Shown here one piece after another: positions 25,574-28,554 of a stretch of DNA of 49,836 nt. Where the stretch lies: NCBI GenBank assembly GCA_035288905.1, contig DATDYZ010000063.1:1-49836 (forward strand). The letters run 5' to 3'. How positions within the stretch are numbered: position 1 is the stretch's first letter; every line of letters begins with the position of its first letter. Made by a program: the position numbers and the translations under genes. Source of the stretch: Candidatus Anderseniibacteriota bacterium (GTDB lineage Bacteria > Patescibacteriota > Andersenbacteria > UBA10190). The notes beneath the pieces are model-generated. The model did no database searches and was not told the DNA's origin. It saw only the letters and a list, made by a program, of their open reading frames with translations.

Positions 25574-26137
25574 CTATAACCTGCTTACCCATCGGTGCTC
25601 CGGCTGCGCTTTTTTAATTGCGTTTTTCAGCCATTGTTTTGATTCCGATAAAAGATGGCCGATAACATTTTCAAAATCTTGATCATCTTTCGGTCGTGTT
25701 TCTTTTGTTTTGTAGAGCAGTGATATTTCCGGGGGCCAGTAGGGAATCGTATCTCTATATTGTATGAGCTGTTCTTTTGGATATGAAATGGAATCGTCTC
25801 GTCTGTACAGCCAATGCGTTTCATTCGAATTGTTCAAAAGAATTTCTATTGTCGCATCATCTTTTACCGCTTTTATTTCATGCACGGGAGGTTGTAAAAA
25901 CTCATCTTCGTTCCATTCACTCATCTCACTATTAATTATTTTCAATAGTCGCCAATCATGAAGATACTTTCTAAGCGCTTGTTGGTCTTCACGGAAAATA
26001 CCAATGTCTATATCAGTGTGCTCCCGAGTAATTTGCGCAAGGAATAAATCAATTGCCCAACCGCCACAAATAAACCAGGGTTTTTTGAAGTCTTGCATTA
26101 CGTCGGTTATATGTTTCAGTTGCGAGGGTATTTTCAT
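25574..26137 (-). CDS. Nucleotidyltransferase, ANT(2'')-like (aminoglycoside adenylyltransferase family fold)
   Basis: WFICGGWAIDLF....HTDIDIGIF motif. Confidence 0.8.
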   Translation of the reverse strand: MKIPSQLKHITDVMQDFKKPWFICGGWAIDLFLAQITREHTDIDIGIFREDQQALRKYLHDWRLLKIINSEMSEWNEDEFLQPPVHEIKAVKDDATIEILLNNSNETHWLYRRDDSISYPKEQLIQYRDTIPYWPPEISLLYKTKETRPKDDQDFENVIGHLLSESKQWLKNAIKKAQPEHRWVSRL

Positions 26138-26233
26138 GTTGTTTTTATACTAGCATGGATAGAAACCAAAAATGTTTTGCTGTTTGCAGTAGATAAAGCC
26201 TGCTTGTTGTTAGCCAGGTGAGAATCCGTTTCA

Positions 26234-26899
26234 TTAATGCAGTGTGCTGCCTACGAGAATGCCGTTTGCAAAGTAAAATCCGGTTTCTCCCGATGGTAAA
26301 ATGTCGTAAGTATATCCATCGTCATACGAAATACGATCGGCAGAAATTACCCGGGAGCCATCATACTCATCTCCTACGGCAAGGTTACCGACTGTGCGCC
26401 CATCTATTGTCGGATGCCCGGGAGAGACTATGAGAATACGTCCGTCTTCTACCATGAACTTTACCATTTTATGATCTGATGGCACCGCTACCTTGCTGAC
26501 CTGAGAGATTTTTTCTACAACGCGCGTGCCGGAGGAAGTGACGGTCCAGATGGGCGCGCCTTTTTGCAAATCTTCTACTGCTACGGCACCTTGTGGCGTA
26601 TCAATTAACGTGTGTTTCGCAAGGCAAATGGGGCAGTTTTGAACATACCCTTTGGGCTGGCAGAAATACTTTGGAGGAGTGTCATCGGGGTATTGCAAGA
26701 CTGGTGGGCCGCACGTTTGCATACATGCAAAATTTGAAGGACAGTCGGTATCTTTCGTACATACAGATGCTTCCGGCGATGGCGGGATATTTTCTATTTC
26801 TTCTGTAAACATCCGATCTTCTGCTTTTACAAGTATCCATACTATACCTATAGCAACAATGATTACTGCAATACTCATGAGCGGTAGAATACTTTTCAT
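26234..26899 (-). CDS. Membrane-anchored Cys-rich protein with a C-terminal Hint (bacterial intein-like) domain
   Basis: TM anchor, then C-rich linker ...NCPIC|LAKHTLIDTPQGAVAVEDLQKG...VSPGHPT...YDIL...FYFANGILVGSTLH. TATAAT lies 8 nt upstream of the ATG. Confidence 0.8.
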   Translation of the reverse strand: MKSILPLMSIAVIIVAIGIVWILVKAEDRMFTEEIENIPPSPEASVCTKDTDCPSNFACMQTCGPPVLQYPDDTPPKYFCQPKGYVQNCPICLAKHTLIDTPQGAVAVEDLQKGAPIWTVTSSGTRVVEKISQVSKVAVPSDHKMVKFMVEDGRILIVSPGHPTIDGRTVGNLAVGDEYDGSRVISADRISYDDGYTYDILPSGETGFYFANGILVGSTLH

Positions 26900-27009
26900 T
26901 GCTCTCTATTATACACGAGCTCAGTAACCGTCGTTCTCTTATTGCAAAACAAGCCGTTTTCCGTACTATAGAGATAGCCATGAACCTTTAAGTGGTACAT
27001 GAGCAATAA

Positions 27010-27049
27010 TCCCTGGTAGCTCTCCGCCAGCTGGCGGAGGTAGAGCAGT
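27010..27049 (+). repeat. Truncated tRNA-Asn 5' copy 1 with a 16-nt palindrome in the D-loop
   Basis: TCCCTGGTAGCTC[TCCGCCAGCTGGCGGA]GGTAGAGCAGT, versus TCCCTGGTAGCTCAGTGGTAGAGCAGT in the tRNA. Confidence 0.85.
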
Positions 27050-27063
27050 TTCTTTTAAAATCG

Positions 27064-27324
27064 ATGCGTATGCAACATTACGTTTATGCGATCTATAACC
27101 CAGATCATTTGAAGGTTTACATAGGAGAAACTAATGATCCAGAAGAAAGGTTAAAGGCTCACAATGAACACCGATTTACAACAAGTTATACCGCTCGTTT
27201 TAGCGGTTTGTGGAAACTTATTTATATCGAAAAATGTTCAGACCGTCGAGAAGCTCGCAAAAGAGAAAAGCAACTCAAAAGTTATCAAGGTCGACAATTT
27301 ATTAAAAAACACATTCCCTGGTAG
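27064..27324 (+). CDS. GIY-YIG nuclease family protein (YhbQ/UPF0213-like, 86 aa)
   Basis: YVYAIYN...KVYIGETNDPEERLKAHN...REKQLK. The last five codons lie in tRNA-like copy 2. Confidence 0.85.
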   Translation: MRMQHYVYAIYNPDHLKVYIGETNDPEERLKAHNEHRFTTSYTARFSGLWKLIYIEKCSDRREARKREKQLKSYQGRQFIKKHIPW

Positions 27325-27369
27325 CTCTCCGTACTCCGCCAGTTGGCGGATGACGGAGGTAGAGCAAGT
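27315..27369 (+). repeat. Truncated tRNA-Asn 5' copy 2 with a 30-nt nested palindrome in the D-loop
   Basis: TCCCTGGTAGCTC[TCCGTACTCCGCCAGTTGGCGGATGACGGA]GGTAGAGCAAGT. Confidence 0.85.
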
Positions 27370-27393
27370 AATATTAGAAAGTAGACAACATAT

Positions 27394-27468
27394 TCCCTGG
27401 TAGCTCAGTGGTAGAGCAGTGCCCTGTTAAGGCAATGGTCGTAGGTTCGAATCCTACCCGGGGAGCCA
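27394..27468 (+). tRNA. tRNA-Asn (anticodon GTT), CCA encoded
   Basis: Hand-folded: acceptor TCCCTGG/CCGGGGA, D arm GCTC/GAGC, anticodon loop CTGTTAA, T arm GTAGG-TTCGAAT-CCTAC, discriminator G, CCA. Confidence 0.92.
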
Positions 27469-27486
27469 TGAAGCAGAGATTTGATA

Positions 27487-27514
27487 AAGACTCGCCAAAA
27501 GCGAGTCTTTCTTG
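27487..27514 (+). terminator. Terminator after the tRNA
   Basis: AGACTCGC-CAAAA-GCGAGTCT followed by TTCTT. Confidence 0.6.
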
Positions 27515-27564
27515 TGGCATGCTTGCCACATCAAATCACGCTTCATGGCGAACCCTGTAGTCAC

Positions 27565-27593
27565 GCGAAGCGTCTACTACTGTGGTCTGGTGT
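27565..27593 (+). repeat. Direct repeat A: GCGAAGCGTCTACTACTGTGGTCTGGTGT
   Basis: Matches 32252..32279 with 1 mismatch and 1 indel. Its 3' 20 nt (27574-27593) is identical to 29369-29388, and the match extends 2 nt further, to 27595/29390. Confidence 0.85.
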
Positions 27594-27623
27594 TTCTTTG
27601 AGGATATATCATATACTCAAACT

Positions 27624-28271
27624 ATGATAAAAGACTCCGCGAAAACGATACTCTGTTACGGTGACTCGAATACCTGGGGAAGTGTGCCAAGAAGCAGTGA
27701 ACGATATCCCTACAGTATTCGATGGACTAGCATACTGCAATATATGCTCGGCGATGAGTATGAGGTGATTGTTAATGGAGTATGCGGAAGAACCCTTGTT
27801 GCCAGTAATCCTGAGAAGCCTTGGCTCTGTGGGATTACACACCTACAAGCCATTCTTGAAAGCGCAAAACCAGTATCTCTTATCATAATTATGCTTGGTA
27901 CGAATGATGTAAAAAGTACGTATAGCCTAAGCGCTGAAGATATTCAAAAGCACTTAGAACAAACAGTGCTTCTAATTCAGGAAAATCAAATAAATCTTGA
28001 AGCGATCCCTAAGGTTCTCGTCGTCTGCCCCGCACCCGTTATCACTCCTGCAATAAACGATTTAGACGAACAAATGGTGCGAGGATTAGATATATTCCCC
28101 CAACTTCCAAAGGCATATAAAGAAACTGCGGATAGGTATGGCTGTGAATTTTTGAATGCTGGTGACTCTATTCAATCAAGCAGCATAGATGGATATCACC
28201 TTAATGCCGAAGCACATGAAAAACTTGCAGAAATAATCAGTACTGCTATTAAAAAACTTCCTCTTACCTGA
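27624..28271 (+). CDS. SGNH/GDSL hydrolase family protein
   Basis: ILCYGDSNTWG (block I), MLGTNDV (block III), DGYH (block V). TATACT lies 6 nt upstream of the ATG. The ORF-track GTG at 27582 lies inside repeat A. Confidence 0.9.
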   Translation: MIKDSAKTILCYGDSNTWGSVPRSSERYPYSIRWTSILQYMLGDEYEVIVNGVCGRTLVASNPEKPWLCGITHLQAILESAKPVSLIIIMLGTNDVKSTYSLSAEDIQKHLEQTVLLIQENQINLEAIPKVLVVCPAPVITPAINDLDEQMVRGLDIFPQLPKAYKETADRYGCEFLNAGDSIQSSSIDGYHLNAEAHEKLAEIISTAIKKLPLT

Positions 28272-28272
28272 T

Positions 28273-28554
28273 ATGCAGAACAAAAAGCTTGAAACTGTGG
28301 TACTGCGCAACCGCGTTTATGAACATTATCGCGGCAATCGATATCTCGTTGTTGATATTGCAAAAGATGCTGACAAAGATGGGGATGAGTTTCTCGTCAT
28401 GTATAGAGCACTCTATGATCACGGACAGCTGTATGCGACAACGCTTGAACGGTTTACAGGAGTAAATAACGAGGGCCAACCGCGATTTCGTTTACTTACA
28501 ATCGAAGAAGAAAACAGAAACCCAACACACACGTATCCAACAATTACAATGTAA
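28273..28554 (+). CDS. DUF1653 domain protein
   Basis: VYEHYRGNRYLVVDIAKD....LVMYRALYDHGQLYATTLERF. Confidence 0.8.
   Translation: MQNKKLETVVLRNRVYEHYRGNRYLVVDIAKDADKDGDEFLVMYRALYDHGQLYATTLERFTGVNNEGQPRFRLLTIEEENRNPTHTYPTITM

Follow-up and report, generated by a model that had tools for sequence, protein, structure and literature searches.

The window, that is, the whole stretch of DNA analysed (49,836 nucleotides), contains an intact tRNA-Asn(GUU) gene at 27394-27468 (+ strand), which was called by ARAGORN, matched Rfam RF00005 with 69.3 bits and folds into a cloverleaf independently of copy 2 described below. Upstream of it, on the same strand, lie a GIY-YIG nuclease ORF and two partial copies of its 5' part, each truncated and carrying a hairpin, so that the arrangement described for 27010-27468 in an earlier note, made from the sequence alone, is indeed present. 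Copy 1 (27010-27049, +) reads TCCCTGGTAGCTC[TCCGCCAGCTGGCGGA]GGTAGAGCAGT and is composed of tRNA nt 1-13 (27010-27022), a 16-nt hairpin (27023-27038) standing where D-loop nt 14-16 would be, and nt 18-28 (27039-27049); its RNA fold has an energy of -18.8 kcal/mol. Copy 2 (27315-27369, +; -24.3 kcal/mol) reads TCCCTGGTAGCTC[TCCGTACTCCGCCAGTTGGCGGATGACGGA]GGTAGAGCAAGT and consists of nt 1-13 (27315-27327), a hairpin at 27328-27357 with a smaller one nested inside it (27335-27350), and nt 18-28 with an additional A (27358-27369). The nested 30-nt palindrome that had been described here is imperfect: AGTT forms the inner loop, and only 5/7 positions are paired between the outer arms TCCGTAC/TGACGGA.

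The ORF (27070-27324, +) encodes 84 aa. An 86-aa product had been proposed, but ATG 27070 (MQHYVY...) is a likelier start than ATG 27064, in agreement with the database gene call and the family alignment. Its stop codon TAG (27322-27324) is nt 8-10 of copy 2, which bears out the earlier statement that this copy supplies the end of the ORF. Between copy 2 and the tRNA lies a 24-nt spacer (27370-27393, +) that is similar to the ORF 3' end and is probably a remnant of a second ORF unit. The lead-ins to copy 2 and to the real tRNA, which had been taken as the same, are similar (88% identity over 25 nt ending at tRNA nt 13) but not identical, with CACATT before copy 2 and CATATT before the tRNA.

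A promoter-like element, TTGCAA-N16-TACTAT (26942-26969, +), precedes copy 1 with a leader of ~40 nt and appears to be the native tRNA-Asn promoter. It has 8/12 consensus matches, under the threshold of a strict consensus scan, and is kept both in L007, a relative with 76% identity, and in the cassette-free L256, where it leads straight into an intact tRNA-Asn. Downstream of the tRNA, a terminator-like inverted repeat, AAAGACTCGC-CAAAA-GCGAGTCTTT followed by CTT (27486-27513, +), can be read from the sequence; it was missed by a simple terminator scan because its T-run is short. A strain-variable junction just past the tRNA 3' end (27469-27470) lies outside the cassette and marks its right-hand neighbourhood: the window, L001-L005 and L006 agree through 27469/70, where one base differs in L001-L005, and then continue into three different downstream sequences.

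Allowing up to two mismatches, the 16-nt hairpin occurs in the 49.8 kb only at two sites, in copies 1 and 2 (0 expected), and the 13-mer TCCCTGGTAGCTC occurs exactly three times, with 0.49 matches (up to two mismatches) expected. Over the stretches shared with the window, six independent assemblies from different samples (L001-L006) match it and include the whole structure, L006 without any difference and L001-L005 each with one base off. Therefore, an assembly artefact, which the earlier note had named as a possible refutation, is rejected.

The encoded GIY-YIG protein

The ORF product matched Pfam PF01541 over residues 4-74 (E=1.1e-16), with weak T5orf172 as the only other Pfam match, and no match was obtained with NCBIfam models. 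Residues Y6, Y17, G19, R27, H31 and E54 are invariant in 35 homologs, and the AlphaFold2 model (pLDDT 96) has the strand-helix order expected of GIY-YIG. The features of the superfamily, namely its motifs, the conserved Arg, His/Tyr and Glu and an alpha/beta fold of ~80 aa, are all present. A profile search of PDB sequences retrieved 1ywl (7.6e-6), 1zg2 (5.2e-5), I-TevI (6.3e-4) and SLX1 (0.011), and Foldseek placed 1zg2 first, then Slx1 (TM about 0.61-0.70) and I-TevI lower. These data indicate that the protein is a minimal UPF0213/Slx1-like GIY-YIG domain, to which it is nearest by sequence and fold, closer to the UPF0213/YhbQ/Slx1-like branch than to the I-TevI, UvrC or restriction-enzyme branches. 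The GIY-YIG fold fills all 84 aa, and a separate DNA-binding domain as in I-TevI and Seg proteins is absent. Since only the catalytic domain is encoded, classic I-TevI-like site-specific homing is doubtful.

Slx1 cuts flaps, junctions and stem-loops, that is, DNA structures rather than specific sequences, but differs from the window protein in pairing with Slx4 and having a RING domain. The literature searched connects neither tRNA genes nor a cognate hairpin with the UPF0213/YhbQ/Slx1 subfamily. The combination of a bare Slx1-like domain with a near-invariant hairpin suggests a possible substrate for the UPF0213/YhbQ proteins, of which little is understood. The ORF has a dN/dS of 0.08-0.21 among relatives, with dS saturated, and its protein family comprises about 1,500 clusters at 50% identity (E<=1e-10); a phage collection searched with the window protein gave no match.

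Distribution of the cassette at tRNA genes

Homologous ORFs (50-65% identity) were found at 80 genome loci in many Patescibacteria lineages. All of them abut the 5' end of tRNA-Asn and have a hairpin-bearing copy adjoining the ORF (80/80), which ties the nuclease to the partial tRNA copies and speaks against mere pseudo-tRNA debris. tRNA-Asn(GTT) was called directly at the ORF end in 67 of the 80 loci; the other 13 likewise have a tRNA-Asn 5' end at the ORF and comprise four contig ends and nine tRNAs that an insertion splits behind ...CTGT of the anticodon loop; in six of these nine the insertion is a confirmed group I intron. Many of the surveyed contigs stop at or just past tRNA-Asn. Nearly all relatives have a counterpart of copy 1 ahead of the ORF, and the first 12 nt of the locus's own tRNA are repeated there in 62/67 loci (46 exactly, nine with one mismatch and seven with two). 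The copy also tracks the lineage-specific acceptor-stem sequence, with 98.5% identity over nt 1-13 in 56 loci. The stop codon falls in tRNA nt 8-10 in 48/75 loci and in nt 19-21 in 11 more, and a -10-like hexamer occurs 5-40 nt upstream of the pseudo-copy in 33/55 loci versus 8/55 and 7/55 in control windows.

The basic unit is therefore not the three tandem copies originally described; it consists of a promoter, a hairpin-marked partial tRNA copy, the ORF and an intact tRNA, and this unit is widespread and under selection, unlike the local repair footprint that had also been considered. The other proposal of the earlier note, repeated invasion, is apt for the third copy, as relatives form a graded series from tandem to decayed units: whole tandem units or ORFs in L052 and L026, a truncated second ORF in L038, where about its last 17 codons occupy the place of the spacer, and the short spacer in the window. 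Second copies between ORF and tRNA are also found in L032, L067, L085, L092, L038, L040 and L083. Judged from this series and from the sequence of the spacer, copy 2 and the 24-nt spacer are probably the rest of a second tandem unit that has lost its ORF by deletion.

More distant relatives have the same layout at other tRNA genes, namely tRNA-Lys(TTT) in L272 and L275 and tRNA-His in L279, and a mirrored layout on the 3' side is present at tRNA-Met in L273 and at tRNA-Lys(CTT) on a 3.6-Mb contig (L281). In the two mirrored cassettes, the hairpins lie in repeats flanking the ORF on both sides, one of them past the ORF. One non-Patescibacteria genome also has the cassette layout. Hairpin insertions at other tRNA genes, which the earlier note had suggested looking for, thus exist at the tRNA-Lys and tRNA-Met cassettes.

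Empty tRNA-Asn sites, likewise proposed as a check, were found in relatives. L256 shares its promoter and leader with the window and its iPGM neighbour with L007, and has an intact tRNA-Asn without the cassette. It was obtained, together with the empty sites L157, L179 and L207, from a metagenome scan with the tRNA-Asn 3' half, a search pattern common to many phyla, in which the cassette was present at 2/120 loci. Where tRNA-Asn is syntenic with rpoD, 19 loci are occupied and 12 are empty, and both states are intermixed on the rpoD tree, which is the presence/absence polymorphism at one conserved site expected of a homing endonuclease gene. rpoD and GIY-YIG identities are only weakly correlated (Spearman 0.16; Mantel r=0.25, p=0.025, 15 loci). 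For example, L079 and L061 share 95% identity in rpoD versus 59% in the GIY-YIG ORF, have hairpins at different positions and carry non-homologous DNA between rpoD and the cassette. A higher evolutionary rate of the ORF than of rpoD could also account for this discordance, which weakens the argument. In addition, the pseudo 5' copy and the 3' remnant in L089 and L074 come from a different tRNA-Asn than the functional tRNA between them, and the copies in L046 and L089 are chimeric, the D-stem having GCGC as its 5' strand on one side of the hairpin and GAGC as its 3' strand on the other.

A possible selfish cassette and its conserved hairpin

We consider it probable, at roughly 60%, that the locus belongs to a large family of selfish endonuclease cassettes that reside in tRNA genes and move horizontally. 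Copy 1 is the displaced original 5' end of the invaded tRNA gene, which still stands behind the native promoter and leader. The ORF has nearly no flanking sequence of its own, as it starts ~20 nt past the pseudo-copy and takes its stop from the conserved U8-A9-G10 of the next tRNA sequence. The tRNA promoter would drive ORF and tRNA as one transcript, and since the cassette brings a fresh 5' part, the essential tRNA would stay functional. Spread between genomes may proceed by recombination within the tRNA homology, probably stimulated by breaks that the GIY-YIG nuclease makes. The hairpin would be the cis element of the cassette, most likely the structure recognised by the nuclease; the earlier idea that the hairpins are signals of the nuclease cassette agrees with their exceptionally strong conservation and with their recurrence in cassettes at other tRNA genes. 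By splitting the direct repeat into homology blocks of ~27 nt or less, the hairpin should also hinder deletion of the cassette and stop the pseudo-copy from folding as a tRNA half, but neither effect requires a conserved sequence, which leaves the hairpin conservation unexplained by them. Against selfish behaviour, the occupied allele retains an intact tRNA-Asn. A nuclease whose target was simply the tRNA gene would attack the genome that encodes it, and nothing is evident that would confer immunity. Moreover, the identity of pseudo-copy and resident tRNA in most loci also fits long residence and gene conversion.

The cassette, whose layout recurs in dozens of lineages of uncultured bacteria, looks like an undescribed kind of selfish DNA. 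The literature searched contained no account of such an architecture, in line with the earlier note's statement that no such element was known; that statement has to be qualified by a close conceptual precedent, the mobile endonuclease ORFs (mORFs) of fungal mitochondria (Allomyces atp6; Glomus atp6, atp9, cox2 and nad3), which bring along a substitute for the native gene end that they displace (PMC3630166). In both systems, an endonuclease ORF (LAGLIDADG or GIY-YIG in mORFs) sits inside an essential conserved gene, the displaced gene end is copied along so that the gene is functional while the native end is left as a partial duplicate, and the distribution among relatives is patchy, with signs of horizontal transfer that are tentative in the case of the cassette. 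In contrast to the protein genes that host mORFs, the host here is a bacterial tRNA gene, the duplicate in the window is the promoter-bearing 5' end, and the restored tRNA cannot diverge to escape cleavage as synonymous sites can. The window nuclease is also a bare 84-aa Slx1/UPF0213-type domain, and every displaced copy bears a conserved hairpin that has no mORF counterpart.

T4-like phages carry free-standing GIY-YIG homing genes (Seg and Mob), among them SegB in the T4 tRNA gene cluster. Like the cassette ORF, these genes lie between or beside conserved genes, tRNA genes included, and their spread by break repair with co-conversion of flanks would be a further likeness. Their products, in contrast, have C-terminal DNA-binding domains and exceed 200 aa, and the genes come without a partial target duplication and without a hairpin element.

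The hairpin has the consensus TCCGCC-N4-GGCGGA, with every stem base 97-100% conserved while synonymous sites of the ORF are saturated. A second hairpin type has the stem CCTGCC/GGCAGG. It is not specific to the D-loop, as it had seemed from the window. In relatives, it stands at nt 9-11, 14-16, 23-25 or 26-28 of the copies, replaces the whole D-arm, or lies in the T-loops of 3' remnants, in its own loop or in a group I intron loop. Several simple origins or roles were considered for it. A role as intrinsic terminator or as source of the Shine-Dalgarno sequence is not general, as the T-run after copy 1 is not kept in relatives and the distance from GGAGG to ATG is ~10-15 nt in a few relatives versus 24-30 nt in the window. 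The loop does not derive from the replaced tRNA nucleotides, given that AGCT loops also occur where the D-loop has AAT. An origin from a collapsed acceptor stem of tRNA-Asn, to which TCCGCCA+GC+TGGCGGA is similar, is doubtful because the same hairpin is found at tRNA-Lys and tRNA-Met cassettes, and it would not amount to a function.

These placements also bear on whether the hairpin itself is mobile, the 16-nt palindrome being copied into loops or junctions of tRNA-like DNA by a structure-specific GIY-YIG nuclease. The ORF with its hairpin would then be the autonomous form and the lone hairpin the non-autonomous one, and the partial tRNA duplications would be by-products of break and repair at inverted-repeat-rich tRNA genes. 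The Slx1-like fold and the action of Slx1 on branched and stem-loop DNA agree with this, as do the many different positions in otherwise homologous pseudo-copies. Several independent lineages (L031, L034, L065, L073, L074, L090, L278 and copy 2 of the window) have one hairpin nested in the loop of another, L017 and L066 have two hairpins within one copy, and L050 has a hairpin in its group I intron, in one of the peripheral loops. Hairpins also riddle pseudo-tRNAs that have no adjacent ORF (a pseudo-tRNA-Lys in L271 and a full-length pseudo-tRNA-Asn in L090). Away from cassettes the hairpin is rare: unrelated tRNA-Asn loci totalling 769 kb contained a single exact copy. However, there is no known mechanism for copying a 16-nt palindrome into new sites, the replaced length is not constant (0, 3, 8, 10 or 13 nt), and rearrangement between cassettes could yield independent positions without new insertion. 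A scan of viral contigs gave 55 exact matches, most of which either arise by chance in GC-rich coding sequence or cap other long hairpins, and these contigs carry no close homologue of the GIY-YIG ORF, the one weak match (E=2e-4) lying ~3 kb from the hairpin. Taken together, we regard mobility of the hairpin itself as rather unlikely.

Hairpin-dependent mobile DNA is known from REP elements with RAYT and from IS200/IS605, which rely on HUH (Y1) transposases. These systems and the cassette both combine a short conserved palindromic hairpin with one small nuclease gene, and in both the copies multiply, nest and exist without the gene. The enzymes differ, being HUH (Y1) there and GIY-YIG here; no HUH Y1 transposase was found for the window ORF, whose Pfam matches are GIY-YIG and weak T5orf172. 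REPs are also genome-wide, whereas the hairpin here, only 16 nt long, is restricted to the tRNA-derived parts of the cassette. Conceivably, the cassette represents a new class of mobile DNA, in which a minimal structure-specific GIY-YIG nuclease recognises, cuts and propagates its cognate 16-nt hairpin across bacterial phyla, with tRNA genes as safe, transcribed landing sites that become part-duplicated, but we hold this only tentatively and consider it doubtful. If it were true, no non-autonomous mobile element smaller than the lone hairpin would be known.

On another reading, the locus is a host module that is inherited vertically and acts through its RNA. The hairpin-marked tRNA-like leader and the overlap of stop codon and tRNA would couple expression of the nuclease to tRNA-Asn processing, RNase P would remove the stop, the hairpin would be an autoregulatory binding site or a 5' stabiliser, and the nuclease would have a host role such as repair. 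Homing endonucleases such as I-TevI autoregulate at operator-like copies of their target. The strong purifying selection on the ORF is consistent with such a module, and so is the constant geometry, with the hairpin ~20-45 nt ahead of the ATG in 5'-side cassettes and the stop in tRNA nt 8-10. Compensatory and G-U changes preserve the stem pairing (four changes of U-A to C-G, two of C-G to U-A, and seven wobble cells), and there is one cassette per sequence window. On the other hand, the distribution at a syntenic site is patchy and correlates weakly with the host marker, a foreign tRNA stands between mismatched remnants in L089 and L074, and tandem arrays with decayed units are typical of selfish DNA. 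The hairpins on both sides of the ORF in the mirrored L273 and L281 cassettes also mean that a fixed 5'-UTR role cannot be general. A host module is therefore improbable in our judgement.

If the selfish cassette is real, essential bacterial tRNA genes host a widespread and previously unrecognised element of ~300 bp, which borrows the tRNA promoter, takes its stop from universally conserved tRNA nucleotides and protects the host gene by partial duplication. The pairing of nuclease and hairpin may reveal a new way of moving DNA. Annotation of Patescibacteria is affected as well, through pseudo-tRNA calls and ORFs that read into tRNAs.

Other invaders of tRNA-Asn

tRNA-Asn appears to be a small hot spot, at which the cassette would be a third kind of invader beside group I introns and a serine-recombinase element at the 3' end. 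This large serine recombinase element is present at the tRNA-Asn 3' end in many loci, and in L001-L005 a large serine recombinase gene adjoins the junction past the tRNA 3' end. Like integrative elements that use tyrosine or serine recombinases, the cassette has a tRNA landing site and a flanking partial duplicate, and the gene is restored by carried sequence; unlike them, it has no recombinase, measures ~300 bp and is duplicated at the 5' end in the window, whereas the true serine-recombinase element of sister strains uses the 3' end of the same tRNA. No recombinase domain was detected in the flanking ORFs tested in the window, and an integrase-driven island is further contradicted by the duplicated 5' end and by the position of the serine recombinase on the other side of the tRNA.

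Group I introns were confirmed in tRNA-Asn of L039, L058, L060, L064, L091 and L095, and in some loci the homology of the pseudo-copy stops at the same ...CTGT as the intron site. In the window, an Rfam E-value scan of 26000-28500 gave the tRNA as the sole match with no ribozyme core; the tRNA is uninterrupted, and the P3-P9 core that a group I intron would have around the ORF is absent. The view that the locus is a leftover att-site duplication of an integrase element, or what a group I intron and its homing endonuclease left behind on decay, could draw on the serine recombinase element and on introns after ...CTGT in at least six relatives, but it is highly improbable, given that the window cassette has no integrase in or beside it, lacks a ribozyme core, duplicates the 5' end opposite to the recombinase junction, and shows a conserved architecture with an intact, selected ORF, unlike decay.

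The pair L024 and L155 (downstream flank 92.6% identical over 120 nt, tRNA only 77%) had been taken up as a case of tRNA replacement by the cassette and was set aside, as the shared flank belongs to the serine-recombinase element. Some of the group I introns in tRNA-Asn carry an ORF, which looks HNH-like by eye.

Structure of the tRNA-Asn locus

An intact tRNA-Asn(GTT) lies at 27394-27468 (+), preceded on the same strand by two partial copies of its 5' part. Copy 1 (27010-27049, +) reads TCCCTGGTAGCTC, the hairpin TCCGCCAGCTGGCGGA and then GGTAGAGCAGT, and copy 2 (27315-27369, +) reads TCCCTGGTAGCTC, a nested hairpin TCCGTACTCCGCCAGTTGGCGGATGACGGA and then GGTAGAGCAAGT. Both the sequence and the tRNA call place these elements where the earlier note had put them, but the 30-nt nested palindrome of copy 2 is imperfect. 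The window contains the first 13 nt of the tRNA exactly three times, and a scan found the palindrome at copies 1 and 2 only, with none expected. The ORF between the copies encodes a GIY-YIG domain; described as 86 aa, it probably starts at ATG 27070 and would then encode 84 aa. Its end is indeed supplied by copy 2, nt 8-10 of which form the TAG stop, but the lead-ins to copy 2 and to the real tRNA, reported as identical, are one base apart (CACATT versus CATATT). Since the whole structure is present in six independent assemblies from different samples (L006 identical, the rest one base off), an assembly artefact is ruled out.

Downstream, positions 27540-27560 hold an inverted copy of the tRNA 3' end and the first following bases, 76% complementary (GCTTCATGGCGAACCCTGTAG versus CTACCCGGGGAGCCATGAAGC), possibly left over from a site of recombination. 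A gene divergent from the cassette (26234-26899, -) encodes a 221-aa product: its N-terminal part has a hydrophobic stretch, and it also contains a cysteine-rich region and a Hint domain (PF13403, E=9.8e-07). A phosphoglycerate mutase gene replaces this gene in the relatives L007 and L256, despite the same tRNA promoter.

A conserved cassette at tRNA-Asn

The closest relative, L007 (76% protein identity to the window ORF), has the order promoter, TCCCTGGTGCTC, hairpin CCCGCCAGCTGGCGGGG, GCAGAGCG, ORF and real tRNA-Asn, with the ORF stop inside the real tRNA and no second copy. The TTGCAA-N16-TACTAT and leader of the window are conserved in L007 and also in the cassette-free L256, where they lead directly into an intact tRNA-Asn. 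The truncated, hairpin-marked pseudo-copy retains the native tRNA promoter. Across the family, 33 of 55 loci have a -10-like hexamer immediately before the pseudo-copy, versus 7-8 of 55 in controls.

A stringent peptide pattern applied to 185,579 species genomes yielded only 134 confirmed loci. We examined 80 of them, whose homologs are 50-65% identical and span many Patescibacteria lineages, Microgenomates, Parcubacteria, Saccharibacteria and WWE3 among them, and found them scattered across classes. tRNA-Asn(GTT) was called at the ORF end in 67 of the 80 loci, and the other 13 likewise have a tRNA-Asn 5' end there, interrupted after ...CTGT in the anticodon loop (9 loci) or cut by the contig end (4 loci). 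In 62 of the 67 loci the first 12 nt of the genome's own tRNA-Asn are repeated directly before the ORF, 46 of them exactly. Acceptor stems are lineage-specific (TCCCCTG, TCCGGGG, TCCGCGA, TCGGGAG and others) and the pseudo-copy varies with the resident tRNA, to which it is 98.5% identical over nt 1-13 (56 loci). Some tens of nucleotides separate the end of the pseudo-copy from the ORF start; the ORF stop falls within tRNA nt 8-10 in 48 of 75 loci and within nt 19-21 in a further 11. With the promoter upstream of the pseudo-copy and the ORF stop within the tRNA, the unit is made up of promoter, hairpin-bearing displaced 5' part of the tRNA, ORF and intact tRNA; ORF and tRNA are presumably co-transcribed. 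A hairpin-bearing copy adjoins the ORF in all 80 loci, so this association is conserved in relatives and is not debris. The interpretation in the earlier note is thus supported in part: its link between nuclease and hairpin copies stands, but as an instance of a conserved architecture rather than a one-locus event.

tRNA homology after the hairpin spans 9-13 nt in most loci and reaches ...CTGT of the anticodon loop in L041, L056, L084, L092 and L094. This is the point where group I introns split tRNA-Asn in relatives, which is suggestive of a shared insertion site. Complete tandem units (copy-ORF-copy-ORF-tRNA) are present in L052 and L026; in L038 the second ORF is cut down to about its last 17 codons, and in L032, L067, L085, L092 and the window a second hairpin copy is followed by a short spacer resembling an ORF 3' end. 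Given this graded series, copy 2 and its 24-nt spacer (27370-27393) are best read as a decayed second unit.

Many cassette-bearing metagenome-assembled genomes are labelled 'uncultured Gammaproteobacteria', 'Pseudomonadales' or 'Bdellovibrionales' (L018, L019, L025, L030 and others), and these names, on genomes with a Patescibacteria-type cassette, are probably taxonomic mislabels in the records. L090 (2330-2500) has an almost full-length second tRNA-Asn downstream of the functional one, with intact anticodon and T-arm, a nested hairpin in the D-loop and a further 3' fragment after it.

Probable horizontal movement and proposed roles of hairpin and nuclease

Empty tRNA-Asn sites, which the earlier note proposed seeking in relatives, were found in L256 and at 12 loci with rpoD upstream. 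These 12 and 19 occupied loci with the same neighbour are intermixed on the rpoD tree, and among the 15 loci compared, rpoD and GIY-YIG protein identities show hardly any correlation (Spearman 0.16; Mantel r=0.25, p=0.025). L079 and L061 have 95% identical rpoD versus 59% identical nucleases, and their hairpin positions differ. The pseudo 5' copy of L089 and of L074 shares its acceptor stem (TCCGGCG/CGCCGGA) with a 3' remnant downstream, and the functional tRNA between them has a different one, a mismatch that points to a foreign ORF-plus-tRNA within a resident gene. As a D-stem, the left and right flanks of the hairpin in L046 and L089 are mismatched, as if the left were resident and the right brought by the cassette.

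In TCCGCC-N4-GGCGGA each of the 12 stem bases is conserved at 97-100% and the AGCT loop at about 90%, while synonymous sites of the ORF are saturated (dN/dS 0.08-0.21), so protein and hairpin are both under selection. Most of the variation in the stem preserves pairing, by compensation (U-A to C-G four times, C-G to U-A twice) or wobble (G-U seven times), which speaks for a genuine hairpin, in RNA or in single-stranded DNA, and the hairpin sequence itself is fixed beyond structure alone. The window protein is a complete GIY-YIG domain and nothing more (model pLDDT 96), nearest by sequence and fold to UPF0213 proteins (1ywl, 1zg2) and the Slx1 nuclease domain, with I-TevI more distant. Such a bare domain, with no DNA-binding domain in the window protein, speaks for an enzyme that recognises structure rather than a homing enzyme with a long target site, and the adjacent conserved hairpin would be the obvious candidate substrate or binding site.

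We favour, at a probability of roughly 0.6, a selfish, horizontally moving endonuclease cassette that would be expressed from the tRNA promoter, would preserve tRNA function by partial duplication and would use the hairpin as its cis element. On this reading a genome with an intact tRNA-Asn would have to escape its own nuclease. The hairpins are found at a wide range of positions, can be nested one in the loop of another, and also occur in the T-loops of 3' remnants and in a group I intron-like loop; this spread keeps alive a more radical, rather unlikely idea, that the hairpin itself is a very small mobile element which the nuclease drives. A regulatory module passed on vertically would be consistent with the selection data but does not fit the patchy distribution and is improbable. 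Leftovers of an integrase or intron failed the defining tests and are very improbable.

Among precedents, the mobile endonuclease ORFs of fungal mitochondria, which bring a replacement gene end with them (PMC3630166), come closest to the cassette. The nearest report to its architecture describes GIY-YIG ORFs within insertions, other than introns, in the rRNA genes of candidate phyla radiation bacteria (PMC11270868). The statement that no such element is described agrees with the literature searched, largely outside subscription journals, in which no account of this architecture turned up, but needs qualifying in view of the fungal precedent. The cassette falls with endonuclease ORFs carrying a replacement gene end, a known kind; there is also a real chance that it is categorically new.

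Other tRNA genes and neighbouring elements

Hairpin insertions at other tRNA genes, a further proposal of the earlier note, were found at Lys(TTT), Lys(CTT), Met and His. At tRNA-Lys(TTT) (L272, L275) the cassette lies on the 5' side, with copy nt 1-23, hairpin (TCCGCC/GGCGGA) and nt 32-48, and the ORF of L275 again stops at tRNA nt 8-10. A second protein clade (229 homologs) occupies the 5' side of tRNA-Asn in L271, L278 and L280, mainly with CCTGCC(TGCC)/(GGCA)GGCAGG, and of tRNA-His in L279, with hairpin CCTGCCTGCC/GGCAGGCAGG. Mirrored cassettes, on the tRNA 3' side, have a hairpin-bearing partial copy on either side of the ORF: two 3' partial copies bracket it at tRNA-Met (L273, TCCGCC/GGCGGA), and tRNA-Lys(CTT) (L281) has the hairpin TCCGCC-AAA-GGCGGA. 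An ORF between two marked copies beside an intact tRNA is therefore a recurring form. The L281 contig is 3.6 Mb, far above Patescibacteria genomes; the architecture extends beyond tRNA-Asn and beyond Patescibacteria. The family profile matched about 1,500 clusters (50% identity) at E<=1e-10.

In L271 (oriented copy, minus strand, about 300-480), a pseudo-tRNA-Lys full of hairpin copies adjoins a real tRNA-Lys(TTT) with no ORF beside it, and the second-clade tRNA-Asn cassette lies on the same contig, indicating that one genome can hold several sites, some decayed.

The window, L001-L005 and L006 agree up to the tRNA-Asn 3' end (27469-27470; one base differs in L001-L005) and continue into three different downstream sequences. 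The neighbour in L001-L005 is the C-terminus of a large serine recombinase (L001 1885-2409), whose full-length homolog in L270 (707-2188) has Resolvase, Recombinase and Zn_ribbon_recom domains, and homologs directly follow tRNA-Asn in at least nine other loci. Given these recombinases and the strain-variable flank, the tRNA-Asn 3' end resembles the kind of site at which a serine-recombinase element attaches.

In six of the nine interrupted loci (L039, L058, L060, L064, L091 and L095, all cassette carriers), Rfam confirmed a group I intron after ...CTGT of tRNA-Asn; L017, L050 and L087 are likewise split, as read by eye. Some of these introns hold an ORF, HNH-like by eye, and the 99% identical cassettes of L091 and L093 are accompanied by an intron in L091 only. 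The intron-like insertion of L050 carries the 16-nt hairpin in a peripheral loop (about 2328, by eye); in L017, whose insertion is related, another stem-loop takes that place. Remote from any tRNA or GIY-YIG gene, the hairpin also caps a repeated element, CATTGCGA-hairpin-GAAGCAATC, in L096 (1180) and the viral contigs L098 (8791) and L112 (8338).
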